Virus record (IMG/VR): IMGVR_UViG_3300020200_000033
Coordinates: 1 to 58,902 of that record
Length of the DNA stretch: 58,902 nucleotides
Reading direction: 5' to 3' (one strand)
DNA from: a virus
Taxonomy: Duplodnaviria > Caudoviricetes
This document shows positions 25,539 to 58,750 of the stretch, piece after piece; the stretch's first letter is position 1; every line of letters begins with the position of its first letter. The position numbers were made by a program, and so were the translations under genes. Under the pieces are notes generated by a model, which was given only the letters and a program-made list of their open reading frames with translations, was not told the origin of the DNA and did not search any database.

Positions 25539-25713
25539 AGAGACGGAAAAAAGTTTACATAAAGAGACGGAAAATGTCCCACATAAAGGTGTAAATTGCT
25601 TACTTAGATAGCCCTATTCTTTGATTTGTAAACTTGCGTGCGCGTAAGATTTCAAGTTTGTAATGTTACACGGGGGTAACATTACATCCGGGTAAGCTTT
25701 CATAGTGTATAAT
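25536..25713. promoter_or_regulatory. terS-terL gap: 24-bp-period repeats, GTAANNTTAC boxes and a TATAAT -10
   Basis: TAAAGAGACGGAAAA at 25536 and 25560; GTAATGTTAC 25660, GTAACATTAC 25676, plus variants; TATAAT 25708. Confidence 0.65.
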
Positions 25714-28136: not shown

Positions 28137-28979
28137 GTGTTAACAACGGAAGATCAAAATATTGAGATTACGCCCGATCAAATTAAATCGTGGTGTCCTA
28201 TGATTGCGCTACCGTGTTATAATCGTGAATTGACTGAACCATTTATGATGTCGCTAGTTCAGTCAATAATGTACTTTAAGCAAATCGGTATGCGTTTTGC
28301 TATTAGCACCATAAGTGATTCACTAATTAGTCGATCCCGGTGTAATCTTGTTGCCAAGTTTATGGCCAATGAACAGTTTACGCATTTGCTATTTATTGAT
28401 GTTGATCTTAAGTTTAATTATAATGATATATTAAAACTTCTTTGGCATAATAAAGATGTGATTGCGGGAGCTTATCCGGTTAAAGATATTAATTGGGGAA
28501 AGGTTCATAAAATGGTACAGGCTGGTGTGCCAGCAGATAAACTAGCACAAAAAGCAACGCGATTTGTTGTAAATCCAGTTAAAATTGGTCAAAATCAAAT
28601 TGAAACCGATGAGGGCGCACTTTCTGTCTATGATGCGGGGACAGGGTTTATGTTGATAAAAAGAGAAGTCTTTATCAAGATGTTCGAGCACTATCCAGAA
28701 TTAAAATTTAATGACGATACCGGGAGTCTAAAAGATAAAGAAAGGGACTACACATACGCCTTATTCAATTCTTATGTAGATGAGGATCAAAAAAGATTTT
28801 TATCTGAGGATTACGGATTTTGTCGTTATTGGCAAAAGATGGGTGGCAAAGTTTGGGTTGATCCCGCTGTTGAGCTTGAGCATTTAGGTTATTTTGTGTA
28901 TAAAGGAAATATGATTGAGTATATTATTGATATTTCCCAAAAGGATTTGGAAAATGAGAATGCCATAAAGTCCACATAA
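28137..28979 (+). CDS. GT-A fold glycosyltransferase (phage type)
   Basis: SLISRSR, THLLFIDVD, GAYP.K, AGTGFMLIKREVF, LSEDYGFC, LEHLG. Confidence 0.85.
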   Translation: MLTTEDQNIEITPDQIKSWCPMIALPCYNRELTEPFMMSLVQSIMYFKQIGMRFAISTISDSLISRSRCNLVAKFMANEQFTHLLFIDVDLKFNYNDILKLLWHNKDVIAGAYPVKDINWGKVHKMVQAGVPADKLAQKATRFVVNPVKIGQNQIETDEGALSVYDAGTGFMLIKREVFIKMFEHYPELKFNDDTGSLKDKERDYTYALFNSYVDEDQKRFLSEDYGFCRYWQKMGGKVWVDPAVELEHLGYFVYKGNMIEYIIDISQKDLENENAIKST

Positions 28980-29030
28980 GGCTTTGATAAATATATTAAA
29001 ATTTGCTAAAAAATTGGCTAAACGCCAAAC

Positions 29031-29239
29031 GTATTATTACAAAGCTGTATTATTACACCGGACCGTGAGCTAATTTTTTAACTAAGCTCTTGGCCGGCTT
29101 TTTTAACTAAAACGAAAGATAAACGCCGGGATTTAGTGAACCGTTGTTTTCGCCATTGATCGCGCCTTATTGCCGACCCAAAAGAAATCTCAGAAATCTG
29201 TTTTTTGAGGTTTTTTTTGACTTGTTCGGGTGCTAGGCT
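29031..29239 (+). promoter_or_regulatory. Control region of the accessory operon; resembles 51060-51245
   Basis: GTATTATTAC x2, GAGCTAA, GCCGGGA, GATCGCG, T-run, then TGC-TAGGCT at 29231-29239. Confidence 0.6.
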
Positions 29240-39893: not shown

Positions 39894-39894
39894 T

Positions 39895-42123: not shown

Positions 42124-42176
42124 TAATAAGAGCTATGCGGAATAAGTGAATGCGAGACATTCGTTTCCGTATAACT

Positions 42177-42386: not shown

Positions 42387-42398
42387 GAAAGGAATATT

Positions 42399-42635
42399 AT
42401 GGCAAAAAGCGAATCAATGGCTCTATTAGAAATAATGGAGATTGTATCTATGCCGGGTGAAATATATTCAGATGGCGATTGTTTAGATATGATCATTAAT
42501 GTTCTAGAAGAAGCCGGCCTTCCTGTAAAGGAAGAGATGAAAAGAATGCAAGAAGAATTTAGAAAGAATCAAGAATTAAAATGGGAAAATTTGGAACGGG
42601 AAGAAATCGTCAGGAAACTACAAGGAAGTAAATAA
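42399..42635 (+). CDS. Hypothetical protein
   Basis: AAGGA RBS; YSDGDCLD. Confidence 0.68.
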   Translation: MAKSESMALLEIMEIVSMPGEIYSDGDCLDMIINVLEEAGLPVKEEMKRMQEEFRKNQELKWENLEREEIVRKLQGSK

Positions 42636-42717
42636 TGGAGACAATACTTGCATTTATAATTGGGTTTCTATTAGCATCAATGATTGCATTATCAATTTCA
42701 AACAAAGGAGATAAAGA

Positions 42718-43134
42718 ATGACAACAATAAAAGATGAACTTGCAAATCTTAAAACAGATGAGCAAGTCTACAAATATGTAAGAGATTTTTTAATTAATCA
42801 AAATAAGAAATCGGAAAATACAAATGACGGTTGTGCTTATCGTGGAGAAGATGGTACAAAATGTGCTGTTGGTTGTCTTATCTTAGATGAATTTTATTCA
42901 GATGAATTTGAGGGTGGATTGCCAAATGAAAGGCTGGGAACAAGAGGTAAAAGAATTGTAGAAGCTATTTGCAAATCTCTTCCAAATTGGATATTCAATA
43001 TAAGTCTATTAGAGAATGTTCAAGAGATACACGACAATTATGAACCATACGCTTGGCAATACGAATTCAATCGTAGAGAAGAAAAATACGGTTGGTTTAC
43101 ATATCATTACTACAAAAATAAGGAGAATGTATGA
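42718..43134 (+). CDS. Hypothetical protein, CxY..KCAVG..IHD family (paralog 1)
   Basis: CAYRGEDGTKCAVGCLI..QEIHD. Confidence 0.75.
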   Translation: MTTIKDELANLKTDEQVYKYVRDFLINQNKKSENTNDGCAYRGEDGTKCAVGCLILDEFYSDEFEGGLPNERLGTRGKRIVEAICKSLPNWIFNISLLENVQEIHDNYEPYAWQYEFNRREEKYGWFTYHYYKNKENV

Positions 43135-43583
43135 CAGCATTTAGCCAAAATTTTCTAACGCAACTTAGCACCGATAAACAGGTGTGGCTTTGGGTTAAGG
43201 AAAGACTCACTGATCAAAAATCAAAGTCCTTTGATGAAGATGGTCATTGTGTCTATAAATCAGACACAGGATTAAAGTGTGCAGTTGGTCATCTAATAGA
43301 GCCAATTTTCTATGACGAAGAAATTGAAGGACACGCAATTTATAGCCATGAAGTTCAAAATATAATTAAAAAATCTGTTCCAAATTGGCAAATGAATGAA
43401 ATGCTCTTAAACAAACTTCAATGTATTCACGATAGTATGAGTCCATTTCATTGGGAAGAGGCTTTTGATGAACTTTGGTTTGATGAAAATGATAATTACA
43501 TTCATACCACAAGTGGATTTGCGCAATATCAGTTAACTAAGTGGAATATGGAAAAGAAAGTGGCAAGCAGTGCGACACTTTAA
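43131..43583 (+). CDS. Hypothetical protein, CxY..KCAVG..IHD family (paralog 2)
   Basis: CVYKSDTGLKCAVGHLI..LQCIHD. Confidence 0.75.
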   Translation: MTAFSQNFLTQLSTDKQVWLWVKERLTDQKSKSFDEDGHCVYKSDTGLKCAVGHLIEPIFYDEEIEGHAIYSHEVQNIIKKSVPNWQMNEMLLNKLQCIHDSMSPFHWEEAFDELWFDENDNYIHTTSGFAQYQLTKWNMEKKVASSATL

Positions 43584-43875
43584 TATTGAACCACATTATT
43601 CATTAGAATTGGTAAATGACTGGTATCTTGTTTGGGATTATCAAAGATCAAGTCCTAGTTTTCCAATTACTGATGAGAAAGTTTTGACTGTAAAAATATG
43701 GGAGTCGTCAGCCTTTGACAAAAGAAATCAAAGCACACTCAATTCTATGTTCGCCTATGCTGAGGTATCAGATGAAGCAGATGGTGAACTATGGCATCAA
43801 TCATTTTTTGGTGAAAAATCTGGTCACGATGCTTTTAAATGGGCAAATGACAAAGCAGACAAGGAACTAAACTAA
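43570..43875 (+). CDS. Hypothetical protein
   Basis: Abutting chain. Confidence 0.65.
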   Translation: MRHFNIEPHYSLELVNDWYLVWDYQRSSPSFPITDEKVLTVKIWESSAFDKRNQSTLNSMFAYAEVSDEADGELWHQSFFGEKSGHDAFKWANDKADKELN

Positions 43876-44177
43876 TGTATATTGACCTAGAAAATTATAA
43901 AACGATAGAAAACTTATCGGCTATGGTTGAAGATTTACGCAAAGAAGCGTATGCGATAGCAGGGTTTGAAAAGGCTATAATTAATTTCGTACAATCGGCG
44001 TATGATTTAACAGCGCATTGGGAGAACCTTCCAAAAAATATTGAGCCGCATATTACTATGTCTACTCGTTATCCTTTTGAAATGTCATTTGATGAACTTG
44101 TTTATGAAATGGGTATTTGGCTAGAAGCAACACAATCAAGAATACAATTATGGAAAGAAGGTAAATTAGATGTCTGA
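43875..44177 (+). CDS. Hypothetical protein
   Basis: AAGGA RBS; YPFEMSFDE. Confidence 0.68.
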   Translation: MYIDLENYKTIENLSAMVEDLRKEAYAIAGFEKAIINFVQSAYDLTAHWENLPKNIEPHITMSTRYPFEMSFDELVYEMGIWLEATQSRIQLWKEGKLDV

Positions 44178-44460
44178 AAGACACGGAAATATAGACAGAG
44201 AAGAACATTATTATGTTATTAAAGCGTGGCAAGATGATGATGGTAATAAATACTATCTATTTGATCACGATACTTGTGCCGTTAGGTTTTCGGACGGCCC
44301 AATTTTTAATAATCAATTAGGAATATGGATTAAAGCAAAAGACAACATCAAAGATGATGAATTTTGCGACGATATCTGGAGCAAATTGAATATGGATAAG
44401 GCAGCAGAAAAGATAATTATGGAGGTACAAGATGCCATTGAAGCGACAGAAAAAGGCTGA
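44170..44460 (+). CDS. Hypothetical protein
   Basis: Abutting chain. Confidence 0.65.
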   Translation: MSERHGNIDREEHYYVIKAWQDDDGNKYYLFDHDTCAVRFSDGPIFNNQLGIWIKAKDNIKDDEFCDDIWSKLNMDKAAEKIIMEVQDAIEATEKG

Positions 44461-44761
44461 GCAAAAGCAAGATGCCAAGACTGAATTTGAAGCAAGAATT
44501 CAGAGTCACATCAATTCACAGTATTCTTTGATTATGCCGGTAAAAGATGATACGGTCATTTGGATCAAGAATCCAGAAAATGCGAATCTTGTCAAATTGA
44601 AAGTCAATTCTGAAGAATACTATGACTTTCTTGACAAACTTATTGGCTATGGCCTTCAAGAAAAATTAGACAAAGATTTTGCTTGGGCAAGCCGATTTGG
44701 CAATAAATATAATGAATCATGGTTAGAATATAAAAACAAAAAAATAAAACAAGGAGAATAA
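44432..44761 (+). CDS. Hypothetical protein
   Basis: GGAGG RBS. Confidence 0.68.
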   Translation: MPLKRQKKAEQKQDAKTEFEARIQSHINSQYSLIMPVKDDTVIWIKNPENANLVKLKVNSEEYYDFLDKLIGYGLQEKLDKDFAWASRFGNKYNESWLEYKNKKIKQGE

Positions 44762-44762
44762 A

Positions 44763-45617
44763 ATGAAACAGTCAGAAATAGACATAGAAAAAATTGATCT
44801 GCAAGGTATGCTTGAAATATACGGCGATTATTATACCAAGAGATACACTGATAATTGTGAAAGTTCAAATATAAGATATGATCAATTGCAAACTGCTCTG
44901 AGTGCAAAAATGTATCGCGTACAGCAGCCAGATTACAATCAAGAAGCCTTTGATCGAGTTATTAAAGCTATTGAGTTGAATGGACTAACAAACTTCAATA
45001 TGACAACATTTTGGGGTAAAATTTCTTCTGCTGTATTTAAAAGAAATGAAAATAATGAACTAGATAGTCCAATTCATAAACTTAGTATGCATTATAGCGA
45101 GTGCTCTACTACTAAAAATATTCTTGATTCTTTTACTAACTCATTCAATTGTGATAGCGTAGGCTGTATTGCTGGCTTTGCTATGGCAGAAGCAGTAAAT
45201 TGGAAACAACCAAAATGGCTTAGAGAAGATTCAAGAGATTATCTTGAAGCATTTGAAGGTATTGCTTGCGCTTTTCTAAATATTCCGATACAGACTGGCG
45301 CAAAACTATTCTATGGTGATGGTGGGTGCATTTGGTCTTTTCTTACGTATCACGAACCAGAAAATTATGGTAGTTTAGAATGGGAAACTAGTGAGGACAT
45401 TGATTACCTCAATTGTGAATATCCTGATCAATGGACAGATGAAGCAATTGCATTGTCATCTATTTCGTTTAAAGAAGCATCGGATGCTTTGCGAAGACTT
45501 GCAAGTGGTGAAATCCTTATTGATAGCACTAATGATTTTCGACCACGCTATTCTAAAGAGCAGAAACAAAAGTTCCTAAACAAGCAATCCAGAGGGCGAG
45601 GAAAAAATAATGGCTGA
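44763..45617 (+). CDS. Hypothetical protein, FNM..CDSVGCIAG family (paralog 1)
   Basis: FNMTTFWG..FNCDSVGCIAGFA. Confidence 0.75.
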   Translation: MKQSEIDIEKIDLQGMLEIYGDYYTKRYTDNCESSNIRYDQLQTALSAKMYRVQQPDYNQEAFDRVIKAIELNGLTNFNMTTFWGKISSAVFKRNENNELDSPIHKLSMHYSECSTTKNILDSFTNSFNCDSVGCIAGFAMAEAVNWKQPKWLREDSRDYLEAFEGIACAFLNIPIQTGAKLFYGDGGCIWSFLTYHEPENYGSLEWETSEDIDYLNCEYPDQWTDEAIALSSISFKEASDALRRLASGEILIDSTNDFRPRYSKEQKQKFLNKQSRGRGKNNG

Positions 45618-45831
45618 TATAGTAGTTGGTCAAAAAATTACGTCAATACGCCATATGACAAAAGAAGAACTGGTTGATGAAGGTTGGGAATTGTGCAAGC
45701 AAATGTCTACAGTTGCTATTGTTTTATCAAATGGCACAATAATCTATCCATCTGCCGATGATGAAGGTAATGGACCGGGTGTGCTATTTGGTAAAACGAA
45801 AGATGTAGGTGGTATATATATTCACCCATAA
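45610..45831 (+). CDS. Conserved phage hypothetical protein
   Basis: IVVGQKITSIRHMT..PSADDEGNGPGVLF. Confidence 0.72.
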   Translation: MADIVVGQKITSIRHMTKEELVDEGWELCKQMSTVAIVLSNGTIIYPSADDEGNGPGVLFGKTKDVGGIYIHP

Positions 45832-45884
45832 AGTAGTAATGCAATATAAAACAATAAATAACACTAACAAAATAGGAGACAATA

Positions 45885-46706
45885 ATGTTCAAAAGTAGAA
45901 TACTACAAGCAGACAAGGTATCAGACAGGGATATCTTCAACTATATCTCTCAACAAATGCTCAAGCAGGGAGTCAAATCTCAAGAGCAGTGGTATGATGA
46001 AGAAGCAGATATAGTTGAAGATGGCGATAGCTGTCGGTACTTTGGTTATGATCTGAGAACAGAAACAGATTTGAGATGTGCTGTTGGTTGGATTATGAAC
46101 AGGGAAATCTTTGAAAAGTATCAAGATTTGCTTGGCGGTGAACTTGAAGGCAATGGCATCACAAATACAGAACCATTAGAAGTGGTAATTTTGTCAAATG
46201 AAAATTGGCAATTCACCAAAGAGTCTTGGGTGATGCTTAGCATTATGCAAAGAATTCACGATAATGCCAATGAAGCAGATTGGTCAGAAATCTTCTTGAA
46301 TATGTCATATTTGTTTGACTCTAATGGAACATTCTGTCCAAACTATGTGCAAAAAGATTCGTATGGTAATTCAGTTAATCATGAAGCATTGTATGAAGAC
46401 GTACAATATGTAACTGAAAAATCTGATGACGAGGATTGCGTACACTTTGTTGATTTTGAAGAACTTGGTATTTCATTCAAGATTCCACATCATAATCCTA
46501 ATGTTGTTAGCAAAATCAGCGATACTATTCTTGGTCCATCAGATGAATTCAACTCTTGCATTGACAGTAAGGCAATTGGTTTGAATATTCTTGATGCTGA
46601 GGATCAACAAACTGCTGATACAAGTGCTATGAATTTCTTGGATCTTATGGATGCAGTAAGAATTAAGAATCAAGAAAAGGAACTGGTTCCTAATGCTGGA
46701 GAATAA
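45885..46706 (+). CDS. Hypothetical protein, CxY..CAVG..IHD family (paralog 3, extended)
   Basis: CRYFG..LRCAVGWIM..MQRIHD. Confidence 0.75.
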   Translation: MFKSRILQADKVSDRDIFNYISQQMLKQGVKSQEQWYDEEADIVEDGDSCRYFGYDLRTETDLRCAVGWIMNREIFEKYQDLLGGELEGNGITNTEPLEVVILSNENWQFTKESWVMLSIMQRIHDNANEADWSEIFLNMSYLFDSNGTFCPNYVQKDSYGNSVNHEALYEDVQYVTEKSDDEDCVHFVDFEELGISFKIPHHNPNVVSKISDTILGPSDEFNSCIDSKAIGLNILDAEDQQTADTSAMNFLDLMDAVRIKNQEKELVPNAGE

Positions 46707-48783: not shown

Positions 48784-49030
48784 AGAACACACGGTCAGCG
48801 AAATAATTAAGACGCTACAAAGTACATACAAACCAGAAGAGAAAATCTTAGTAATGTGGTGGGATAGAAGCCTGCCATATTTCGAGCATACGCCATCAGA
48901 AAGTGTATGGGAAAGGGCTCTGGAAAGGATTTCAGATGGGGCCTTGGATTATCCTTCGAGTTTAGTTTGGGATACCATCGCAGAAGAAATTGACCTAATT
49001 TACAAGGAACTAGGAGAAAAATTAAATTAA
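48776..49030 (+). CDS. Hypothetical protein
   Basis: AGGAG RBS. Confidence 0.65.
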   Translation: MSEEHTVSEIIKTLQSTYKPEEKILVMWWDRSLPYFEHTPSESVWERALERISDGALDYPSSLVWDTIAEEIDLIYKELGEKLN

Positions 49031-49031
49031 T

Positions 49032-49277
49032 ATGGACAAGGCAGAAAGACTTAAAAGAAGCAGGGTATTTACAAAAATTGCCGAAATAAGAAAAGATGCG
49101 GCAAATGCAAAGAAATTCGCAGAATTAGATGGTAATTCAGAATATGCTTTTTGGGATGGATATCTTGAAGGAGTAGATTATGTTATGTTTGTACTTCAAG
49201 ACTTGAAATTCCAAAGAAATCAACCAAAACCAAAGAAAGCAAAGGGCAAATCAGATGGCAACAAAAAAACCAAGTGA
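49032..49277 (+). CDS. Hypothetical protein
   Basis: AGGAG RBS; FWDGYLEG. Confidence 0.65.
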   Translation: MDKAERLKRSRVFTKIAEIRKDAANAKKFAELDGNSEYAFWDGYLEGVDYVMFVLQDLKFQRNQPKPKKAKGKSDGNKKTK

Positions 49278-49464
49278 AGAAGAAGGCCAAAAACCAAAGC
49301 TATGGAATGTCCAATTTGTTGAAGATTTTGCCGTAATTACGGCAACATCAGTTGAAGCATTGGATGAAGAAGATGCTACGGATGAAGCAATACGAACTCT
49401 TGCAGATTACTATGATATTGATGTTAGTGGTTGGATGTTGAATGATGTTGAGGAAGTATGCTAG
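49255..49464 (+). CDS. Acidic hypothetical protein
   Basis: VEALDEEDA; abutting. Confidence 0.62.
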   Translation: MATKKPSEEEGQKPKLWNVQFVEDFAVITATSVEALDEEDATDEAIRTLADYYDIDVSGWMLNDVEEVC

Positions 49465-49584
49465 GTTTAAACAATCAATTTAAATCGACATTCCCTGAAT
49501 TTACAAAGTTGGTAATCGCTATGTGGATTGCCGGGGCAATAATTGGGGCTTTAATATGGTATTTATATAAGAAAGAAGGATGAA

Positions 49585-49884
49585 ATGGAACGCAAGACAA
49601 TCGTTGACTTGAAGGATTATGCCTTTGAGATAATGAATAATACCAACTCTGCCACAGAGCATTTCTTTTGGAAAGGTCAGTATTTGGCTTATTCTAATGT
49701 GCTGGATATAATTGATGAAAAGATCGAAGAAACAAGGGATATGGCTCAGGAAGATGAATGGGTTAAAATGGCTCAGGAAGATGAATGGGTTAAAAAGCGG
49801 GTTCGAGCAAAGAAACTGCTTGACGCAATCTTTCGGGCTGATGAAATAGGATTAGATGACAAATATGAGTTTAATAATGAGTGA
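49585..49884 (+). CDS. Hypothetical protein with exact 9-aa duplication
   Basis: AAGGA RBS; MAQEDEWVK twice. Confidence 0.65.
   Translation: MERKTIVDLKDYAFEIMNNTNSATEHFFWKGQYLAYSNVLDIIDEKIEETRDMAQEDEWVKMAQEDEWVKKRVRAKKLLDAIFRADEIGLDDKYEFNNE
49741..49794 (+). repeat. Perfect 27-bp tandem duplication
   Basis: ATGGCTCAGGAAGATGAATGGGTTAAA x2. Confidence 0.95.
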
Positions 49885-50071
49885 ACCTTCTTACGATAAC
49901 AGAATAGCACTCGAGCAAACAATTGTTGATTGTTCCAAGTTTTTATGGGGTGATAATTCAACAGAGTATGTGGTTGGCTTATTATCTAGTCTTATAACAA
50001 AAAAACAGTTAGAAGTATTGGCCGAGGCTTTAAAAGCCAAATTGTGGGAGATGCGCAAGGAGATAATGTAA
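49877..50071 (+). CDS. Hypothetical protein
   Basis: Abutting chain. Confidence 0.58.
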   Translation: MSEPSYDNRIALEQTIVDCSKFLWGDNSTEYVVGLLSSLITKKQLEVLAEALKAKLWEMRKEIM

Positions 50072-50090
50072 TTACTATAAGGAGGTATGT

Positions 50091-50348
50091 ATGATAAACA
50101 TAAGAAAGATTATAGATCATTGTATTCTTAACTATTCGCCCGGAGATATGGTGGATATAGAAGATATAATAAATGAGTTAAGGCATTTGAGTGATAATAG
50201 AGAAATTCGGTGGTGTGAAAACGGATGTGGATATAAGCTCCCAGAAGAATATGCCGAAGATGAGACAATTTGCGGGGCTTGTCTAAATGAATTGGAAGAT
50301 ACAAAGCGTCGTATCAAAGCAAAACAAAGAAAAATGCGGGGTAAGTAA
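50091..50348 (+). CDS. Cys-containing hypothetical protein
   Basis: AAGGAGG RBS; CENGC..CGAC. Confidence 0.65.
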   Translation: MINIRKIIDHCILNYSPGDMVDIEDIINELRHLSDNREIRWCENGCGYKLPEEYAEDETICGACLNELEDTKRRIKAKQRKMRGK

Positions 50349-50859
50349 TATGGATTGGGATAAATTAGTATTCTCTATATTTGTAATTGCTATGTTTGTA
50401 GTCGTAGCATTTGATTACTGGAAAGATCAATGAAACCAGAAAGCGGATTGATGAATAAGATCAAAGCATTTATTTGCGGGTTTAAAGAACATAAGTTATC
50501 TGTAACTACACATTATGGAGAAGACTTGATAGAGTGGTACGACAAAGGTAGACAATTGGCATGCCAATTGTTTCGTAGATAGAACTACATCTATTTATAA
50601 GCTTACGTCTCTTTGCAAAGAGGTAAAAAGCGCTCCATAATGCCTATAAATTTAATAATTTATATGGTGTATTATAAAAATATGGGTAAAAATCCACAAA
50701 AAGTAATCAAAAACCTTCACTTTTTCACAAGCCCATATAAAGAGACGGTTTTGACCCAGCATAAAGGGCCGGAAAAGATAAATAATTGAATAAGTGATAG
50801 TACTTAGGTAGGTATAGATGATTATAGAACTGAGATGATTTATCAAAGAACCCGGAACT

Positions 50860-50920
50860 AATTTACTCATACAATTACTCATACAATTTCCCATACAATT
50901 TCTCATACCGATTACTCATT
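50860..50920. repeat. Five degenerate 12-bp tandem repeats
   Basis: AATTWCYCATAC units. Confidence 0.85.
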
Positions 50921-51216
50921 AGATCGAAATTACATCTATGGAATTTGTCAGCGTTAGGGTTGCCTAACTGCCCAGGTAATAGGTGGGGTTATAGATGCCC
51001 CATAAAGGTATTACCTTCACTAAAACATTAGATAAAGAATGAGACAAAAATTTTTACGCACTCCACTGTAATATTACATCGTAATATTACCAACCGTAAT
51101 ATTACAGGGCCCGAAGCTAAAGAATAGATCGCGTATTTGCCGAATTATTTGGTAAAACAAAGCCGGGAGTTAAGCTCGCCCTATGGATCGCGTATTATAT
51201 TTTTTTTAGTTTCAGG

Positions 51217-51245
51217 TTGGTTTTTTTTAGATATGCTGGTAGGCT
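51217..51245 (+). promoter_or_regulatory. Cassette 1 promoter
   Basis: TTGGTT-N17-TAGGCT with TGG extension. Confidence 0.65.
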
Positions 51246-51319
51246 CGTCTCAGCCTTGCGAATAGGCTGAAATAAGTAAAAAAAAAGAAATAACAACAAA
51301 GAAAGAAAAAGGTAGCAAT

Positions 51320-51655
51320 ATGCCAAAGGAAATGGATAACAACAACAACAACGAATTCGAAATCGTGAACGAGAACGATTTGGAATTCACTTCACGTGGG
51401 CGAAAGTCAAAGATTTCCGATAAGGAAGTCCAAAACGTTCGGGTTCAGGTGGAGAAAAACCCAAATGGTTGGGTTCTCTTCAACGCAAAGGCAATTCCTT
51501 CGGGAATGGTTGATGCGAAAGAAATCCGAAACCACAAGGCAACGGTTAGCGCACAAATTCGCCAATTGGCAAAGAAATTGGGAATGAGTGTCGCAATTCG
51601 TTGGCACAAAGGTACAATTCCAGCCGCGAAATTCGGCAAGGGAAAAACCAAATAA
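51320..51655 (+). CDS. Cassette 1: small basic RGRKS-family protein
   Basis: EFEIVNENDLEFTSRGRKS..KATVSAQIRQLAKKLG..GTIP. Confidence 0.8.
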   Translation: MPKEMDNNNNNEFEIVNENDLEFTSRGRKSKISDKEVQNVRVQVEKNPNGWVLFNAKAIPSGMVDAKEIRNHKATVSAQIRQLAKKLGMSVAIRWHKGTIPAAKFGKGKTK

Positions 51656-51705
51656 TTCCGTAAGGAATTGACATAGCCTATTCGCAAGTCTAAGAATAAA
51701 GAATT

Positions 51706-51737
51706 GGGTGGGGAGAAATCTCCACCCTTTTTCTTTT
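51706..51737 (+). terminator. Intrinsic terminator
   Basis: GGGTGGGGA-GAAA-TCTCCACCC-TTTTTCTTTT. Confidence 0.88.
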
Positions 51738-52191
51738 GTATTGTGTCGAGTCCCGGATAAAACATTAGCTAAAACGCGATCTTTTTTTTTATTTTACAAC
51801 GGTGTAATATTACACTGTAATTTTACCGGCCATAAGGATAACCATAAAGATGAAATGTAAAATTACCAATTGGATAAAGGTTCACAACGAGCTTACCAAA
51901 TTGATTAGGATAAAGATTATTAAATTGTTGAGAGCCGGTGTAATATTACGATGGTTGTAATGTTACGGAAGCGTAACATTACACCCACGAAACATTACAT
52001 AAAGTATTCCATAAAGGTAATATTACCGCTAAGGAATAAGCACACTAAAAGTCTAAAAGAATGCTGTATTATTACCGTTGGTAATATTACGCTGGTTCGC
52101 ACAAAAAAAATCGGCCGGCGTAACTTTACGATCGTGTAAGTCAACGCCGGGGCAGTTGTGGTACGGGGCAGTTATGGTACACCGACAGAGC

Positions 52192-52264
52192 AAAAAAAAA
52201 TCGCCTAGCGATTGCGTAGTACAAGCGTGGTTAGTGCTTGTAAAACTACGCAACCGCTAGACGA
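52192..52264 (-). terminator. Long hairpin terminator of cassette 2
   Basis: 20-bp stem with G-U pairs on the minus strand followed by T9. Confidence 0.75.
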
Positions 52265-52363
52265 CCTGCTGTTGCCACCCAAAGGCTATGTCGGTTGCCA
52301 ACCCGACTAGTACTAAGAGCCGTAAGACGTTATCTTACAGAGATGTTAGCAATCGCTAGACGG

Positions 52364-52672
52364 TCACTTGCGTGAGCGTGAACGCAGACGCACGGTAGGG
52401 ATACCGTCGACCGTGAACTTGATGTCCACGACGACCCCCGCCTGCTTGCCTGCTGAGCGCAACTGTGCCGACACCGTAGCCTTACGGCTCTTGTCGGTCA
52501 AGTCAACACGCAACTTCTTGATTGTCAAAACTTGCCCTGGGGTAAGTTTTCCAATCATCGCAACGATGGCGGGGTCGGCTTGCGACTTCCTGCCACGGCG
52601 AGCGAAGTTGAGTTCGCTCTCGTTCACAATCTCAAACTCGTGGTCGTCAGCGTTGCCCGTGTTCTTGGACAT
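52364..52672 (-). CDS. Cassette 2: small basic RGRKS-family protein
   Basis: EFEIVNESELNFARRGRKS..KATVSAQLRSAGKQAG..GIPTV; GAAAGG RBS. Confidence 0.8.
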   Translation of the reverse strand: MSKNTGNADDHEFEIVNESELNFARRGRKSQADPAIVAMIGKLTPGQVLTIKKLRVDLTDKSRKATVSAQLRSAGKQAGVVVDIKFTVDGIPTVRLRSRSRK

Positions 52673-52921
52673 CGTTGTAACCTTTCGTGTGAGTAAGGGA
52701 ACTAACGGATAAGAACAGTAGTACCACTACTGCCCCTTGCTGTAAGTTTTGGTAGCCGTGTTCGTTACCTTACACGGCACTAGGGTTCGCTGACTGCCTA
52801 GCAATCCCACACTTGTGGTAAAGTTACCACACCATCACACCACGACCTAGCCGATGCTCGGCGGTAAAGTTACCGCCCGCCTACTAGGTTGACCGTGGTA
52901 CGGGTCAAGATGGCAAGAGCC

Positions 52922-52965
52922 ATTCTATCAGCCGATTGGCGAACCCCAACACGAACAGACGTTCG
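52922..52965 (-). promoter_or_regulatory. Cassette 2 promoter with LexA (SOS) box
   Basis: CGAACAGACGTTCG (52952-52965)-TG-TTGGGG-N16-TAGAAT. Confidence 0.72.
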
Positions 52966-53211
52966 CAAAAGAACCCATAAAGTTGACTGATTAGGTCGGG
53001 TATTAGCTGAAAGATTGGATTAGATAATGATCGTAAAGTAGCACGGCCGTAAAATTACGTTTGATTTCATAAAAGTTTTCCGGCCGTAAGATTACATTAG
53101 AATCGCGTACTCAAGTAATCTTACATGTGTGTATTGTTACAGTGGGCGTAATCTTACAGTCAGTGTAAGATTACGCCCCCCGTAATATTACCGAAAAATT
53201 AGGCGTAAGAA

Positions 53212-53243
53212 TACTCCCAGCGCCTGCCACTAGCGCTGGGAGT
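53212..53243 (-). terminator. Hairpin terminator of cassette 3
   Basis: TACTCCCAGCGC..GCGCTGGGAGTA just past the stop. Confidence 0.7.
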
Positions 53244-53263
53244 AAACTTACAGCCTTGCCAGA

Positions 53264-53551
53264 TTAGGCGAGAGTCACTTGGGGGATACCTGACGGACTC
53301 CACCCAATGCGAACCTTCTTACCTGCCTGCTTGCCTGCCTGACGGATAGTGGCACTGTGCTTTGCCTTCTCCGTTTTTGCCTTCGGGCTATTCGGGCTCA
53401 CTGCCATTGACTTTATGACTAGTGCCTTACCTTTGGTGAGGGATGAGATACCCTTCACCAATTCTGGGGATACTTGGGACTTGCGCCCACGCTTTGAGAA
53501 TTGTAGCGAGTCTTCACTCACTACCTCAAAGTCATCCTTACTCGTTGCCAT
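53264..53551 (-). CDS. Cassette 3: small basic RGRKS-family protein
   Basis: DFEVVSEDSLQFSKRGRKS..SATIRQAGKQAG..GIPQV; GAGGAG RBS. Confidence 0.8.
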   Translation of the reverse strand: MATSKDDFEVVSEDSLQFSKRGRKSQVSPELVKGISSLTKGKALVIKSMAVSPNSPKAKTEKAKHSATIRQAGKQAGKKVRIGWSPSGIPQVTLA

Positions 53552-53606
53552 TGTTGCCTTCTCCTCTGGAACCCTACTTCTTTTTCGGGCTCCGTTGTTA
53601 GATACC

Positions 53607-53635
53607 AAACTACTCCCGATACCGAACCTTTGCTA
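53607..53635 (-). promoter_or_regulatory. Cassette 3 promoter
   Basis: TAGCAA-N17-TAGTTT; near-consensus SOS box CGAACAAGTGTTTG at 53760-53773. Confidence 0.55.
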
Positions 53636-54006
53636 TTGGAGCGTCAGTCAGTACCCCCAAAAACCCCAATAAAAACAAGGGTTTTTGAGAGTGTGCCAAA
53701 AGTCACACCGAATTGGTTGTGTAGTTTTAGGCAAGTTGGAAAACCTACGCAGTCAATGGCGAACAAGTGTTTGCCACCATAAAGTAGCATTGTCGTAAAA
53801 TTACTTAGGTATTGGTTTCATAAAGTTTCCCGGCTGTAAAGTTACATAAACATACTCAATTTTCCCTGTATGATCGTAATGTTACTGAGGGCGTAACTTT
53901 ACGAACTCGTAAAGTTACGCCCGCGTAATATTACTTGATGACAGGCTGTAAAATTACGCCGGGGCTGGTTGCCCAACTTTGACGTAACTTTACTAGGCGA
54001 GTAACT

Positions 54007-54438
54007 TTACTCGGCTGTAACTTCTACTTCTGCCAAGCCCTTGATATATTGGTCGCACATCACCCAAAGAGTGTGCGTATTGTTACACTCATCACAGTCG
54101 CAACCCTGAGCGTACTTCTCAAACAGACTATGCCAAGTGTTCAGCATATCCGCAAACATCATCAGGTAAGAATACTCACGTGTCAGATTAGTACCGCCTT
54201 CGTTGGCGTGGTTCGTTGCGAATGTTAGCAATCCACGACGGTAGAAGTCTGCCCGTACCCGCTTGTCGTGTTCGTCAGGTTGGATATTCCAGATACCTAG
54301 GCGTAAACTTACGTGCCTAGCGTACTCACCTACTTCACGTCCGCACTCACGCACGGCTAGACGGAACTCCGTCTGTGTAAGCGGTCGGATGAAGTACGGT
54401 TCGTCGGGGTTCGGGCTGATTGGGTTGTCGTTGTTCAC
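54007..54438 (-). CDS. Cassette 4: helical protein with CDCDEC motif
   Basis: AAGGA RBS, own promoter, stop codon inside a GTAA box. Confidence 0.75.
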   Translation of the reverse strand: MNNDNPISPNPDEPYFIRPLTQTEFRLAVRECGREVGEYARHVSLRLGIWNIQPDEHDKRVRADFYRRGLLTFATNHANEGGTNLTREYSYLMMFADMLNTWHSLFEKYAQGCDCDECNNTHTLWVMCDQYIKGLAEVEVTAE

Positions 54439-54488
54439 TTGTGTATCCTTACGTGAGCCATATCATCGGCGGGGTTGCCGACGGGTTC

Positions 54489-54535
54489 AGTCTACCACCC
54501 CCCCGGACGCGTTCCAACAGTCCCAAGAATGGTAC
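54489..54535 (-). promoter_or_regulatory. Cassette 4 promoter with RTMCCA-N4-TGGKAY operator
   Basis: GTACCATTCTTGGGAC-TG-TTGGAA-N17-TAGACT. Confidence 0.75.
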
Positions 54536-54735
54536 TTTGTATTATTACATTAGATCATCTACCATAAAGATTTGGCCATTGTAATGTTACAATTGTGTAC
54601 TCCATAATGTTTATAAATGCGTAATATTACTACGGGCGTAAGATTTCAAAACCCCCAAATCTTACGCCCGCGTAATATTACAGTGCATAGAATGTAAAGT
54701 TACACCGGGGACTAAGGATTAGTTTTGGTGTAACT

Positions 54736-55161
54736 TTACTGCGCTGTAATGATTTCAGCGCTTGCGAGTAACTTTACAAAGAACTTTATGGCTTCGCCGT
54801 GAACCATAACGGTAGAACAAACATCACAATCACAGTTTTCTGTATTGTTACACGTCTGTTCAATTTCTTGCATTATCGCAACATTGTCTAGGAAGTTTGC
54901 TAGCACTTCAAGCGTCAATGGTGATTGCGCTGGAATGTTACTGAGTTGCCCGTCAAGTTGTATTCTTACACGACTTATCTTGTGCCCTAAGTCAATGTTG
55001 GCTTCAACCTGAGCGGTAAACTTACGGGTAAGTTCTTCACTCGGTGGTGTCTCGTCTTCGTCAAGTCTGAGTAAGACTACCTCGCAGTAGGTATTGAATG
55101 AACGACCTAGCGCTTGCCATAGCGCTACCCATTCATCACTCGTCATTCGTTCCACTCTCAT
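54736..55161 (-). CDS. Cassette 5: helical protein with CDCDVC motif (likely paralog of cassette 4)
   Basis: MTSDEWVALW..; leader identical to cassette 6. Confidence 0.75.
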   Translation of the reverse strand: MRVERMTSDEWVALWQALGRSFNTYCEVVLLRLDEDETPPSEELTRKFTAQVEANIDLGHKISRVRIQLDGQLSNIPAQSPLTLEVLANFLDNVAIMQEIEQTCNNTENCDCDVCSTVMVHGEAIKFFVKLLASAEIITAQ

Positions 55162-55210
55162 TGGTGTAATCTTTCTGTGAGTATTTCATCGACCCTTTGC
55201 CGATACGTTC

Positions 55211-55257
55211 ATCATAGCAGCCCTAGAAATGGCTTCCAACCATACCAAGAATGGTAC
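55211..55257 (-). promoter_or_regulatory. Cassette 5 promoter with the same operator
   Basis: GTACCATTCTTGGTAT-GG-TTGGAA-N17-TATGAT. Confidence 0.75.
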
Positions 55258-55426
55258 TTTGTATTGTTACGCGATCACCTGATTACATTATCCACCATAA
55301 AGGATTGGCCATTGTAATGTTACAATTGCGCATTCCATAATGTTTATAAGTGTGTAATGTTACTGCGGGTGTAAGGATTGAACCCCCCCAATCCTTACAC
55401 CCGCGTAATATTACCTGGATCAATTT

Positions 55427-55472
55427 GTAAAATTACGCCGGGGCTAGTTTCCTAGCCCTGACGTAACTTTAC
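55427..55472 (-). terminator. Hairpin built from two GTAA boxes after the cassette 6 stop
   Basis: 21-bp stem, GAAA tetraloop on the minus strand; homologues at 53948, 54694, 56985. Confidence 0.6.
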
Positions 55473-55484
55473 TGCGCCGTAAGT

Positions 55485-55856
55485 CTACGAGTTGGCAAGG
55501 CGGGCAATTGCGTCTTTGGCGAGCAAGTACCCTTCTTTCAATTCTTCCGTAGGTGTCAGATTACGGGTTAGGTAAGAGTAGTGCCACTCCACGATGTCTA
55601 GCATCTTGGCGAGATACTCAAACGAGTCTGCCGACCTTGCTGTAACACTACCAGACTCTAACGCTTCCGCAATTTCTACTCCCTGTGTTGCCATCTGTGT
55701 ACCATCAATGGCATCACACAACAATTGCTCAACATTGTCTTTAGTTACGGGGACGTCATTTTCGACGGTCAACGCAACTCTAATTGAGAATTCGGCAACG
55801 AGAAAGCAAGCGAAGCGCATCACCGTTAGCCATTCTTCCTTATTCATTTCTTCCAT
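55485..55856 (-). CDS. Cassette 6: helical protein (likely paralog of cassettes 4-5)
   Basis: MNKEEWLTVM..; leader TACTCACAGAAAGATTACACCAATG shared with cassette 5. Confidence 0.75.
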   Translation of the reverse strand: MEEMNKEEWLTVMRFACFLVAEFSIRVALTVENDVPVTKDNVEQLLCDAIDGTQMATQGVEIAEALESGSVTARSADSFEYLAKMLDIVEWHYSYLTRNLTPTEELKEGYLLAKDAIARLANS

Positions 55857-55905
55857 TGGTGTAATCTTTCTGTGAGTAGTTGTCCTGCCTATTGGCATTA
55901 CCCAT

Positions 55906-55952
55906 AGTCTACCACGCCCGGTAATCGCTTCCAACTATCCCATAAATGGTAT
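55906..55952 (-). promoter_or_regulatory. Cassette 6 promoter with the same operator
   Basis: ATACCATTTATGGGAT-AG-TTGGAA-N17-TAGACT. Confidence 0.75.
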
Positions 55953-56204
55953 TTTGTATTATTACGTTGAGTCAAAAGTAATATTACGTTTACATAAAGA
56001 CACTAAATTTGTAAAGTATCTTGCCTGTAATCTTACGGGTGTGGCGCGGGGGGTTTAGGCGCGCCACACCCGCCCGTAATGTTACCCATAAAGAAGTAAA
56101 TCCACTAAAATTACACAGCCGTAATACATAGCCCGCTTGGTAATATTACATAACATCAAAGCTATGCGCTAACTATTGTTAGCGGGCCGATAACAAAAGT
56201 ATCT

Positions 56205-56251
56205 GTACCATTTTTGGGATAGTTGTGGGTAAGGTTTTGGGCTGGTAGGCT
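56205..56251 (+). promoter_or_regulatory. Cassette 7 promoter with the same operator
   Basis: GTACCATTTTTGGGAT-AG-TTGTGG-N17-TAGGCT. Confidence 0.72.
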
Positions 56252-56300
56252 ATGGGCAACGGATTACGAAGGGTAGTCCCCAAACAAAGGATAAAACAAA

Positions 56301-56741
56301 GTGAAAAAAAAGAAGGTAACAAAGGCAACAACGGCAAAGGCAAAGGCATTTGCCAAAAAACTTAGTACCAAAATTGGTACTGCCAACAAGGTACTAGCAA
56401 AAATCCCAGCCAAACCCATTTACGATAGCGAGTATCTAAACCTTGCTATTGGCAAGGCACTAAATGGAATTGCTATGCCAGCAGACAAAAATGCTCGTGA
56501 GTGGTGCGCCGATAACGGTGTCGTTGTGGATGTACGCAAAATGGTACACGAAAACAAAGAAGGCAAAGTGTCGTGCTTGCGACCCGAAAACACGGTACGC
56601 CAGCGTTTAGAGACACTTAGCAGGGTAGATAGTCGGATAGCAAAAGTGGCGTACTGTCGCAAATTGGTAAATGGTACTAGTGACGCTTGCGACCCAACAA
56701 ACAACGATGCTTACCTAGTTTTCATTTACCTAACTAAGTAA
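56301..56741 (+). CDS. Cassette 7: basic RPENTVR-family protein
   Basis: AREWC..VH.N..VS..RPENTVRQR; AAGGA RBS. Confidence 0.8.
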   Translation: MKKKKVTKATTAKAKAFAKKLSTKIGTANKVLAKIPAKPIYDSEYLNLAIGKALNGIAMPADKNAREWCADNGVVVDVRKMVHENKEGKVSCLRPENTVRQRLETLSRVDSRIAKVAYCRKLVNGTSDACDPTNNDAYLVFIYLTK

Positions 56742-56755
56742 GTAGTACCAAAAAA

Positions 56756-56787
56756 GACACGGGGCAGAAATGCCCCGTGTTTTTTTT
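56756..56787 (+). terminator. Intrinsic (possibly bidirectional) terminator
   Basis: ACACGGGGCA-GAAA-TGCCCCGTGT followed by a T run; A run upstream. Confidence 0.9.
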
Positions 56788-57038
56788 GTATCCTATGATG
56801 TCCCATAAAGGGTACGGCCTTATAAAATTACATTATGTACCACAAATGGTACATAGGTGTAATATTACAAACTCATACTAAAAAAAATAAGAATAGGAAC
56901 CATTCTCAAACGGGTGTGTCAGAAACGCTGGCGCTGTCTGCTCCACCCGCGTAAGATTACCGTGTAATATTACCTATATGGCTTGTAAAGTTACGCCGGG
57001 GCGGGGGGTTCCCCAGCGTAACTTTACTGCTGTGTTAT

Positions 57039-57347
57039 TTAACTGTTGCCCCAATCGCAACCGTTATCGTCATCGGCATCGCAAGTCATCCAGACATACC
57101 CGCATTCGGTAGTCTCATCTTCGGTAAAGTGACAGAACTTGCAGGGTAGCATCCCCTCATCGTAATGGTAGTGCTTGCGATACCAAGCACGGATTCCGAC
57201 TAGCGATGCCATACGCTGACGGTCAGTATCGGTGGATTGCTCTATCCATTCCCACTCTTCGGGTGTAAACTTACTTGCGTCAATGATGACCAAGTTATCG
57301 GCAGAACCATAAGTCCCGTCAGTTGTGAAGTAATATTTCCTAGTCAC
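57039..57347 (-). CDS. Cassette 8: acidic Cys-rich hypothetical protein
   Basis: YFTTDGTYGSADNLVIIDAS..; GAAAGG RBS. Confidence 0.75.
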   Translation of the reverse strand: MTRKYYFTTDGTYGSADNLVIIDASKFTPEEWEWIEQSTDTDRQRMASLVGIRAWYRKHYHYDEGMLPCKFCHFTEDETTECGYVWMTCDADDDNGCDWGNS

Positions 57348-57397
57348 GTTGTAAAGTTACCTTTCTCGTGGTTGAGTGTACCTATTGGCACGCCATT

Positions 57398-57442
57398 AGT
57401 CTATCGGATATCCAATAGCCTTGCAACACGAACAGATGTTCG
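57398..57442 (-). promoter_or_regulatory. Cassette 8 promoter with LexA (SOS) box
   Basis: CGAACAGATGTTCG (57429-57442)-TG-TTGCAA-N17-TAGACT. Confidence 0.8.
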
Positions 57443-57744
57443 CTTTATGGCTGGTTTATGGGAATGATTCTCATAAAGGATTATGCTGTGTAAACTTACA
57501 TTAAAGAAATGAGGCTTATGTAATATTACGCCAGTCAAAAGTATTCTATTAGTATCTCATAAAGAAATAAACACACTAAACTTACCCGATCGTAACCTTA
57601 TAACCCGCTTGGTAACATTACACAGAGCGGGACATAAATGGTACGGGACAAGAATGGTACACTTCACCGATCGCGCCTAGTCGACGTGGCAGAAAGAGAA
57701 AGAACCCCGTACCATTCTCGGTACGGAGTTCGGCTGACTATCGG

Positions 57745-57783
57745 TAGAAACAGAAAGAGCCCGACTCTTGCGAGTCGGGCTCT
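57745..57783 (-). terminator. Intrinsic terminator of cassette 9
   Basis: AGAGCCCGACTC-GCAA-GAGTCGGGCTCT-TTCTGTTTCT. Confidence 0.82.
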
Positions 57784-57801
57784 CTCTTGCGAGAGTGTCT
57801 C

Positions 57802-58278
57802 TCAGTTCTTGCGAACGATAAACACTTTCTTCGCATCAGCATTCTTCGAGTCGGTGGCAGTCGGTGAACCGTTCTGAACGAATCGGACATACGCCAGAGT
57901 CTTCACCAGAGCGAGAGCGTTGCGCTCTTTCTGATTCAGTTTCTTCATCACTTCTTTCTCGCTCGTCAGATTCACGAATGTGAGAATGCGAGCCCTAACC
58001 GTGTTCTCTGGTCGGTTCGTGCTAACACGCTTCACATGGTTCTTGTGAACGATGGAATCCACCGATACCACGAACGCCTCATTAGCGAGACACCACGAAC
58101 GAGCGTCAGTCTCATTCTTCGGCATCACTTTCTTCGTGAAGAGTGCTTCACTCATCGCATTCAGAAGAACGAGCGACACATAGACACGCTTAGAGCGCAT
58201 CTCAGCCCGAACCTCATTCGTCTTGGTGATGACTGAAAGCATCAGTTTCACCCACTCTTTCTTACTCTTCTTACTCAC
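57802..58278 (-). CDS. Cassette 9: basic RPENTVR-family protein (paralog of cassette 7)
   Basis: ARSWC..VHKN..VS..RPENTVRAR; GAGGA RBS. Confidence 0.8.
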   Translation of the reverse strand: MSKKSKKEWVKLMLSVITKTNEVRAEMRSKRVYVSLVLLNAMSEALFTKKVMPKNETDARSWCLANEAFVVSVDSIVHKNHVKRVSTNRPENTVRARILTFVNLTSEKEVMKKLNQKERNALALVKTLAYVRFVQNGSPTATDSKNADAKKVFIVRKN

Positions 58279-58326
58279 TTCGTTATCCTCTCTCTTAGGG
58301 CTCGCCCGTTGCGAACCGTTGAGAGC

Positions 58327-58371
58327 ATTCTAGCCGACCCAGAAGAGCCTTGCTACACGAACGAATGTTCG
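58327..58371 (-). promoter_or_regulatory. Cassette 9 promoter with LexA (SOS) box
   Basis: CGAACGAATGTTCG (58358-58371)-TG-TAGCAA-N17-TAGAAT. Confidence 0.78.
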
Positions 58372-58594
58372 TATGATTACGCATAACTATACGAGCTGAC
58401 GCATAATAATACACTACGCATAAACATACACCGTAATGTATGATTACGCGATCTACCATAAACGGTACATCGGTGTAAGATTACGAATGCGTATTCCATT
58501 TCTGGTATGTACCATTTATGTCCCAACGGGTGCGTCTGCTACGTGAAACTGGGCAGCTCCACCCGCGGTATTATTACATAAAGGTGGATCGGTT

Positions 58595-58750
58595 GTAAAA
58601 TTACATGTTAAAAATGAGACACTCAAGGACACTACAAGGTTTGGTGTTGTAATCTTACATCCATTAAAAATGAGACACTCAAGGACATTATAAGGTTTGG
58701 TGCTGTAATATTACACATACTAAAAATGAGACCATAAACTGTAATGTTAC
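58595..58750. repeat. About 2.6 tandem 54-56-bp repeats, each starting with a GTAA box
   Basis: GTAANNTTAC..TAAAAATGAGACACTCAAGGACAYTAYAAGGTTTGGTGYT. Confidence 0.88.

Follow-up and report, generated by a model that had tools for sequence, protein, structure and literature searches.

A conserved palindrome array in an uncultured lake phage: candidate multi-site operator of a probable terminal-repeat module

The palindrome array and its polar partner motif

The IMG/VR virus record IMGVR_UViG_3300020200_000033 (Duplodnaviria; Caudoviricetes), rated about 56% complete, was analyzed over its whole length of 58,902 nucleotides (the window). Close to one end of it lies a module of approximately 8 kb in which, in window orientation, three genes of a family here called RGRKS are followed by variable cargo genes and by genes of a second family, RPENTVR (Table 1). 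The module sits where a long rightward gene block meets a leftward block of ~10 kb that includes ThyA, and its spacers are densely occupied by the palindrome GTAANNTTAC. Exact matches to this motif occur 66 times in the window, compared with a mean of 1.23 and a maximum of 4 in whole-window dinucleotide shuffles, and 62 of them are confined to an array that makes up 13% of the window. For this stretch alone, 300 first-order Markov simulations gave a mean of 0.35 copies and a maximum of 3. Variants with one mismatch number 36 between position 50001 and the window end. The G+C content of the stretch is 0.45–0.48, as against 0.33–0.41 in the rest of the window. Of the 62 sites, 58 fall between genes, even though 44% of the stretch is coding; the sites span the spacers from the stop codon of one gene to approximately 60 nt upstream of the promoter-like element of the next, and a near-site overlaps the ribosome-binding region of each leftward module gene.

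A pattern scan of viral contigs recovered related contigs with the same dense motif. Ten arrays with 12–62 sites each were considered, namely those of the window, G001, G002, G003, G004, G006, and L134–L137; the near-identical G003 and G004 were both counted, whereas G005, which is near-identical too, was left out. In G001, 43 of 44 copies lie within 82.4–90.3 kb, where the G+C content is raised as well. Searches with the array and with the 20–40 kb stretch gave no DNA match in the phage collection.

Selection on the sites was assessed in a collinear orthologous alignment of 3.3 kb between window positions 50717–53994 and L134, which share 70% DNA identity. Half-site bases are identical in 205 of 232 cases (88%), compared with 146 of 243 bases (60%) in the 5-bp flanks and 39 of 58 bases (67%) in the central two positions; elsewhere in the alignment, other intergenic DNA is 67% and coding DNA 73% identical. 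The half-site excess is highly significant both against the flanks (Fisher p ~1e-12) and against coding DNA (p = 3e-7), and 19 of 29 sites are retained in place as exact sites. Since the flanks are less conserved than the half-sites, recent tandem duplication is no sufficient explanation of the motif and is ruled out as its whole cause. The array is conserved across this phage clade and, judging from the alignment, under selection.

Neighboring sites keep a preferred distance. Of 56 close pairs, 34 are spaced by 16–17 bp. Multi-site palindromes are present as well, for example at 53131–53191 with four sites, and sites often belong to super-palindromes of 30–60 bp. Many sites are located in the arms (13–16 bp) of GC-clamped inverted repeats, as at 53889–53922, 54633–54670, and 56985–57027. 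The central dinucleotide follows clear preferences: in 267 sites from eight arrays it is TA in 88 cases, CA/TG in 46, AG/CT in 40, GA/TC in 34, AA/TT in 29, AC/GT in 25, GC in 3, and CC/GG in 2, with neither AT nor CG ever found, and among the 66 window sites GC, CG, GG/CC, and AT are all absent. Pyrimidine-purine centers (TA and CA/TG) thus account for 134 of the 267 sites. This preference for flexible steps and the avoidance of AT and CG fit indirect readout by a protein.

Most of what a preliminary description of this DNA had stated about the motif agrees with these results. It had estimated about 60 copies in 7.7 kb and envisaged a motif count against background; both the local number of 62 and the window-wide total lie far above the shuffle and Markov expectations. 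The coordinates that it gave for sites wholly within open reading frames (ORFs; 54303, 54768, 55016, and 57265) are exact, the clustering at 13–17 bp is recovered in window spacings of 13 bp (three times), 15 bp (once), 16 bp (three times), and 17 bp (five times), and the variant pair at 29031 and 29047 consists of GTATTATTAC sites with one mismatch each. Its view that fixed half-sites mark the site of a dimeric protein finds support in the alignment, as the half-sites behave in the way such a site would be expected to. Two statements need correction. Exact copies outside the array had been seen only before terL, at 25660 and 25676, and those at 1836 and 35347, which amount to about the chance number, had been overlooked; and the central two bases, described as freely varying, are variable but not fully free. 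The polar CATAAAG motif, the multi-site palindromes, the clade-wide module, and its probable terminal-repeat identity were absent from that reading.

No word in the arrays is more strand-asymmetric than CATAAAG, which has 110 copies on the main strand and 7 on the opposite strand over all ten. In 41 of 78 cases from seven non-redundant arrays, CATAAAG precedes a site (one mismatch at most) by 8–11 nt, and the gap is typical of the genome, being 10–11 nt in the window and L135 and 8–9 nt in G001 and L136. The orientation of the motif is independent of the direction of the neighboring gene. Mini-cassettes of both elements are located at two operon starts outside the array, before terL and at 29 kb, and in the former TATAAT is found 22 nt downstream. 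Before terL, the window and G001 each possess two CATAAAG copies to which no proper site is coupled, so that the two motifs are separate, often coupled elements. In this region (window 25540–25590; G001 ~7980–8060, reverse strand), a unit composed of GAGACGGAAAA, 8–9 nt, and CATAAAG occurs twice; the second CATAAAG of G001 abuts the terL ribosome-binding site, and the window carries an insert of ~130 nt with the site pair and TATAAT.

Gene content and variability of the module

Table 1. Coordinates of the array, its partner motif, and the genes of the module in the window.
Feature	Position	Strand	Remarks
Palindrome array	51068..58750		62 exact GTAANNTTAC sites
CATAAAG co-motif	50760..58583	+	16 copies on + strand, 3 on - strand
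Mini-cassette before terL	25558..25685	+	CATAAAG twice, then pair 25660/25676 forming an inverted repeat with 10-bp stem
Mini-cassette before 29.3 kb operon	28964..29056	+	CATAAAG, then two GTATTATTAC sites 16 bp apart (29031, 29047)
RGRKS paralog a	51320..51655	+	111 amino acids; terminator 51706-51727
RGRKS paralog b	52364..52672	-	102 amino acids; terminator 52199-52213
RGRKS paralog c	53264..53551	-	ATG at 53551 taken as start; listed ORF extends to 53608
Cargo gene 1	54007..54438	-	CDCD motif; no relative among ORFs of seven related records
Cargo gene 2	54736..55161	-	CDCD motif; no relative in seven related records
Cargo gene 3	55485..55856	-	likely ATG at 55856; third unit of tandem gene-plus-spacer cassette of ~700 bp
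RPENTVR paralog a	56301..56741	+	two-way terminator 56757-56780
Cargo gene 4	57039..57347	-	Cys-rich, 102 amino acids; no relative in related records
RPENTVR paralog b	57802..58278	-	158 amino acids; terminator 57702-57731; structure model available

Each of the conserved module genes is accompanied by a terminator-like hairpin. Two to three RGRKS paralogs, in the order and orientation a(+), b(-), c(-), are encoded in nine of the ten arrays, the tenth being cut by a contig end, and the RPENTVR family is represented in all ten. None of the four cargo ORFs, by contrast with these conserved families, has a relative in the seven related records. The products of cargo genes 1 and 2 have a CNNT...CDCD.C cysteine motif near the C-terminus in common, and the stop codons of both genes fall inside a GTAANNTTAC site. 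Promoter-like elements of the form TTGGAA-N17-TAnnnT are located ~75 nt upstream of cargo genes 1, 2, and 3, apart from the palindromes; that of cargo gene 2 reads TTGGAA-N17-TATGAT (55239–55211). Three of the cargo ORFs lie in tandem gene-plus-spacer units of ~700 bp, whose spacer families D3, D5, D7, and D9 are 68–88% identical. Joints in contigs of other lake samples skip 1095 or 1663 bp or go back 700–722 bp within 54.0–55.9 kb (X9 and X13, two of four runs), with sides of only 24–46 letters.

Toward its end the window contains two 56-bp tandem repeats with a site at the end of each (58608–58719) and then a duplicated GGTGTTGGTCGTCAGA unit followed by a G-run at the contig end (58760–58902). 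Contigs of other samples have poly-G loose ends at 58865, and the window end is thus probably an assembly break. On the other side of the array, the block of small genes at 49000–50900 varies between co-occurring strains: contigs of other lake samples show loose ends at 49499, 49946, and 50422 and joints that skip 179 and 683 bp.

The remaining genes of the window are of the siphovirus type and encode a tail protein, a tail fiber, an SbcD-like exonuclease, a DnaB-like helicase, a primase, a DNA polymerase of 1129 amino acids, a DNA methyltransferase, TerL, and a DUF6551/ParB-like protein. G001, a linear record of 105,669 bp without end repeats that is rated 100% complete, is collinear with the window in reverse and additionally encodes a tape measure protein, portal, protease, ribonucleotide reductase, and ThyA. 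Its tape measure protein (36987–46190, - strand) comprises 3067 amino acids, which implies a very long tail, and the gene at 51129–52589 (- strand) matches a PHROG annotated as tryptophan halogenase (E = 5.5e-106). No phage RNA polymerase was found among the G001 genes, and no Sigma70_r2 domain in G000 or G001. ARAGORN predicted two transfer RNA (tRNA) genes in the main gene block of the window, at 13682–13755 and 31755–31829, for Lys(ttt) and Arg(tct), and none in the array, where Rfam at gathering thresholds likewise gave nothing. Pfam returned no match for nine array proteins and almost none for 20 further window proteins. All 24 sequencing runs that contain the array derive from lake-water DNA; no RNA run is listed.

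A candidate operator and competing explanations

The two-fold symmetry of the site, the selection on its eight outer bases, the flexible center, the phased spacing, the multi-site palindromes, and the intergenic placement together indicate a site for a dimeric protein with many adjacent loadings. Conserved half-sites combined with a less constrained center and less constrained flanks are what a dimeric operator predicts. In the interpretation that we favor, and to which we assign a roughly even chance of being right, the array would act as an operator with many sites, through which a dimeric phage protein controls the probable terminal-repeat module. GTAANNTTAC would be the recognition site of a sequence-specific DNA-binding protein with two-fold symmetry, most likely encoded by the phage itself. 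The 16–17 bp spacing and the super-palindromes would allow many dimers to load side by side and to occupy the spacers between the stop of one gene and the promoter of the next, and this occupancy might switch transcription of the whole module at once, through shut-off, insulation, or a roadblock acting on its small, probably early, genes. The bound dimers could cooperate with whatever reads the polar CATAAAG motif upstream of many sites.

As the binder, the RGRKS family would be the first candidate on account of an invariant RGR motif in its flexible N-terminus, and RPENTVR the second. Both families had already been named in the preliminary description; their co-occurrence with the array (nine and ten of ten, respectively) speaks for this proposal, whereas searches by Pfam, fold, and name matched neither. 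The R-G-R is unchanged in all 48 RGRKS sequences compared and belongs, in the predicted structure, to a less confident N-terminal stretch that precedes a small alpha/beta domain. RGR motifs mediate minor-groove binding in Lsr2 and AT-hook-like proteins, and its position in the RGRKS models would allow it to contact the minor groove at the A/T-rich center of the site. The family has 412 metagenome homologs in 138 clusters at 50% identity, but all searches for a named relative were negative: the three window paralogs have no Pfam match at E ≤ 0.01, the best hit among sequences of solved structures reached only E = 0.44, Foldseek found no match at E ≤ 0.001, the best Z of the VIA wide search (6.1) was not above background, the ESM Atlas contained unnamed viral clusters only, and tblastn against cultured phages retrieved none. 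Membership in the Lsr2 family was rejected, as hhalign against the Lsr2-like protein of the Streptomyces phage Coruscant gave a probability of 0.4% and only the short RGR motif is common to both. A homodimer prediction for RGRKS scored 0.01, which yields no verdict and is evidence neither way. RPENTVR paralog b was modeled by AlphaFold with a predicted local distance difference test value (pLDDT) of 90 and a predicted template modeling score of 0.84. Structural neighbors were found neither by Foldseek at E ≤ 0.001 nor by VIA (best Z 4.2), the Atlas gave nothing usable, and the model suggests that the protein may have a new fold. Large HEAT, WD40, and CARDB proteins from the representative search were discarded as repeat artifacts.

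Four observations weigh against the operator interpretation. Firstly, RGRKS and RPENTVR resemble no known DNA-binding fold or family. Secondly, no array is present in L138 and L139, the two short and near-identical loci that a metagenome scan yielded for one distant relative of RGRKS; the family can therefore exist without the motif, which lowers the case for RGRKS without removing it. Thirdly, most sites are situated 60–260 nt upstream of recognizable promoter-like elements rather than over them, which is unusual for a simple repressor. Fourthly, the uniform orientation of CATAAAG points to a one-directional process acting region-wide, which gene-by-gene operators do not explain. Concerning the distant relatives, two single-protein scans of viral contigs for their context returned nothing. 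In L139, the distant homolog (4830–5450) forms a single-gene unit within long non-coding DNA, and its flanking hairpins GGGCGGAAG...CTTCCGCCCGCC resemble the GGGCGTAAG...CTTACGCCCGCC of the array, with T/A replaced by G/C.

The polarity of CATAAAG would be accounted for if array and partner motif were cis signals of a long terminal repeat rather than transcription operators. Such signals might act in terminase recognition, repeat duplication, staged DNA entry (as proposed for the injection stop region of T5), end protection, or recombination between repeats. We regard such a function at the DNA ends as unlikely, but as the most serious competitor; the two readings are not mutually exclusive, and the CATAAAG polarity keeps a directional process in play. 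Several lines of evidence make it probable that the phage has its long direct terminal repeat (DTR), or the counterpart of one, in this module. The nearest cultured relatives of the window TerL are those of Streptomyces BE-cluster phages, with 39–41% identity over 90–95% of the length; among them is Coruscant (41% over 90%), which is reported to have a DTR of 12 kb, recognized by a two-fold rise in coverage (PMC7650747). Here, the per-contig read depth from ~50.99 kb onward is roughly double that of 49.0–50.8 kb in all four lake runs, though variant contigs could split the depth of the left flank: left flank and module have depths of 126.8 and 247–329 in X2, 8–11 and 16–36 in X6, 9–10 and 18–27 in X9, and 5–7 and 12–43 in X13, steps that strain variants could also produce. 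In both phages the ThyA block leads into the repeat, or presumed repeat, and the contig of the window stops at the far edge of the array. The one-orientation heptamers beside the T7 terminal repeat and the repeat-rich T5 terminal repeat, both compared below, also speak for a function at the DNA ends. On the other hand, loose ends at 49.5–50.4 kb show where splitting among strain variants could generate the depth step equally well, and no record carries the module at both genome ends; G001, with its linear ends, has one array only, though a repeat collapsed in short-read assembly would look the same. The mini-cassettes at internal operon starts fit an end-only role poorly.

A combination of both ideas, which we consider speculative and fairly improbable, is a terminal-repeat "chromatin" unit. 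RGR-motif paralogs encoded within the repeat would polymerize over the 40–60 palindromes and, together with CATAAAG, form a nucleoprotein domain on the DNA that enters first or is packaged last, gating entry or packaging and shielding or silencing the repeat genes. If true, this would provide a function for unexplained end-proximal repeats such as the T7 heptamers, the T5 stop region, and the Coruscant palindromes.

The tandem units and the unique cargo genes raise the question of whether the spacers are recombination substrates, i.e. repeated promoter-terminator cassettes that swap cargo genes as in T4-like phages, with the palindrome as only one cassette part. The similarity of the spacers, the restriction of four cargo genes to the window among the related records, and the joints that skip or repeat 700–1663 bp would all agree with this. 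However, the short sides of these joints may reflect repeat artifacts, and recombination depends on long stretches of identity rather than on a strictly conserved core of 8 bases between free flanks, whereas the footprint in the alignment shows that it is the core that is selected. As the primary function of the array we therefore judge recombination to be improbable; exchange of cargo is likely a side effect.

The sites themselves could be promoters, as TAANNT retains the three strongest positions of the -10 consensus and would be present on both strands as a TANNNT-type element. The array might then hold numerous early promoters, perhaps bidirectional ones, or act as a sink that draws off host RNA polymerase. 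The DTR cassettes of Coruscant, in which each gene is preceded by a TTG hexamer and, 17 nt further on, by TGTAAGCT, the GTAAGCTTAC sites in G003, and two instances of TTGTAA-N18-CATAAT at 54579 and 55312, found by a promoter scan, in which a half-site would serve as -35, can be cited in favor. The geometry of the array as a whole is not that of canonical -35/-10 promoters. A -35-like hexamer is found 16–18 bp upstream of TAANNT in 19 of 223 site orientations on the main and 14 of 223 on the opposite strand, compared with 16–52 of 223 in shifted controls, no -10 element occurs at a fixed distance downstream of the sites, and a sigma-70 type promoter scan of the region is not enriched (18 found, 14.2 expected). 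Furthermore, three to four sites per 40–60 bp cannot all work as promoters, neither the symmetry of the 10-mer nor the selection acting on its outer G and C would be explained, and the cargo genes have promoter-like sites of their own. This explanation is accordingly very improbable.

At least as doubtful is the binding of a host protein, either nucleoid-associated or a global regulator, that the array would titrate or borrow in the way proposed for the DnaA boxes of T5. The TGTAA/TTACA half-sites do resemble those of several bacterial operators, and the motif persists in phages that share only 30–50% identity in their candidate proteins. However, both the extended motif and the CATAAAG gap differ by phage lineage, for which a co-evolving phage protein is the easier explanation.

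Finally, a role of the palindromes as structures, be it DNA cruciforms or RNA hairpins acting as terminators or processing sites, is highly improbable despite the many sites in stems of GC-clamped hairpins, because a 10-mer with a 2-base center cannot fold alone, only 5 of 56 neighboring pairs are mutual reverse complements, the hairpins lack U-tracts, Rfam finds nothing in the region, and a terminator scan of it is not enriched (8 found, 7.9 expected).

Comparison with known phage systems

In large virulent phages whose terminal repeats are long, among them T5, SPO1, and the Streptomyces BE cluster, the genes that act first reside in these repeats, and the cis signals located there are poorly understood. 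The widespread uncultured clade described here offers an unusually clean case, with a measurably selected palindrome, a polar partner at a fixed distance, and two orphan families. Finding the binder would establish a new family of DNA-binding proteins and provide a tractable model for switching, insulation, and handling of terminal repeats at DNA entry or packaging.

One parallel is Coruscant (L140), which resembles the window in having ThyA just inside the repeat, a ThyA block reading into the repeat, and small leftward single-gene units. It also has a palindrome of its own, GGCGCCNGGCGCC, all 24 copies of which are restricted to the two DTR copies, with one in each intergenic gap between these units, beside elements that resemble promoters and terminators. 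Its cassettes (800–11300) are composed of a GC hairpin with T-run, an AGATG/CATCT inverted repeat, a TTG hexamer, and TGTAAGCT (AGCTTACA in 11 cases). In contrast to the 5–12 copies per gap found here, however, Coruscant has a single one, the motif there measures 13 bp and is rich in G+C, and tblastn detected no RGRKS or RPENTVR homologs.

The untranslated part of the left terminal repeat of T5 is reported to be equally full of dense repeats, inverted repeats, and palindromes (10.1101/866236). T5, itself a large siphovirus, resembles the window in that a largely non-coding stretch of conserved layout lies next to small (pre-)early genes, in its case within a long terminal repeat. The repeated boxes named for T5 are eight host DnaA boxes, whereas here 40–60 copies of an unrelated 10-bp palindrome extend across all spacers of an 8-kb module whose terminal-repeat status is itself a probable one. 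Protein similarity is lacking, and PHROG matches are generic.

In the podovirus T7 (L141), the sequence of bases 1–360 contains ~15 heptamers of the CCTAAAG type, three of them CATAAAG, in a single orientation in and beside the terminal repeat, just as the CATAAAG copies of the window array are concentrated on one strand. The heptamer arrays of T7 are named SRL and SRR, and its terminal repeat is 160 bp long. To our knowledge no function of the T7 heptamer array has been established, and a literature search on the heptamer returned nothing useful. T7 differs in being unrelated to the window phage and in having no GTAANNTTAC beside its heptamers.

Two further systems share the repetition of a short intergenic element. 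The stoperators of mycobacteriophage L5 are present in dozens of copies in short intergenic spaces, where one phage protein blocks transcription. They are asymmetric, oriented with transcription, distributed genome-wide, and bound by a lysogenic repressor, whereas the site described here is symmetric and restricted to one module, and neither repressor nor integrase was seen in this phage. With a palindromic site and 62 of 66 copies in 13% of the window, the array was not assigned to the stoperators. The promoter-stem-loop (PeSL) cassettes of T4-like phages may mediate the exchange of small genes (PMC4122927). Like them, the module has repeated composite regulatory spacers that flank small variable ORFs, with promoter-like and hairpin elements in each spacer. 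PeSL cassettes are, however, described as single promoter and stem-loop units, whereas here a selected short palindrome occurs many times per spacer and conserved core genes are added. The array and its module are thus a new variant of both repeat-rich terminal-repeat regions and repeated regulatory cassettes, and a member of no described family.

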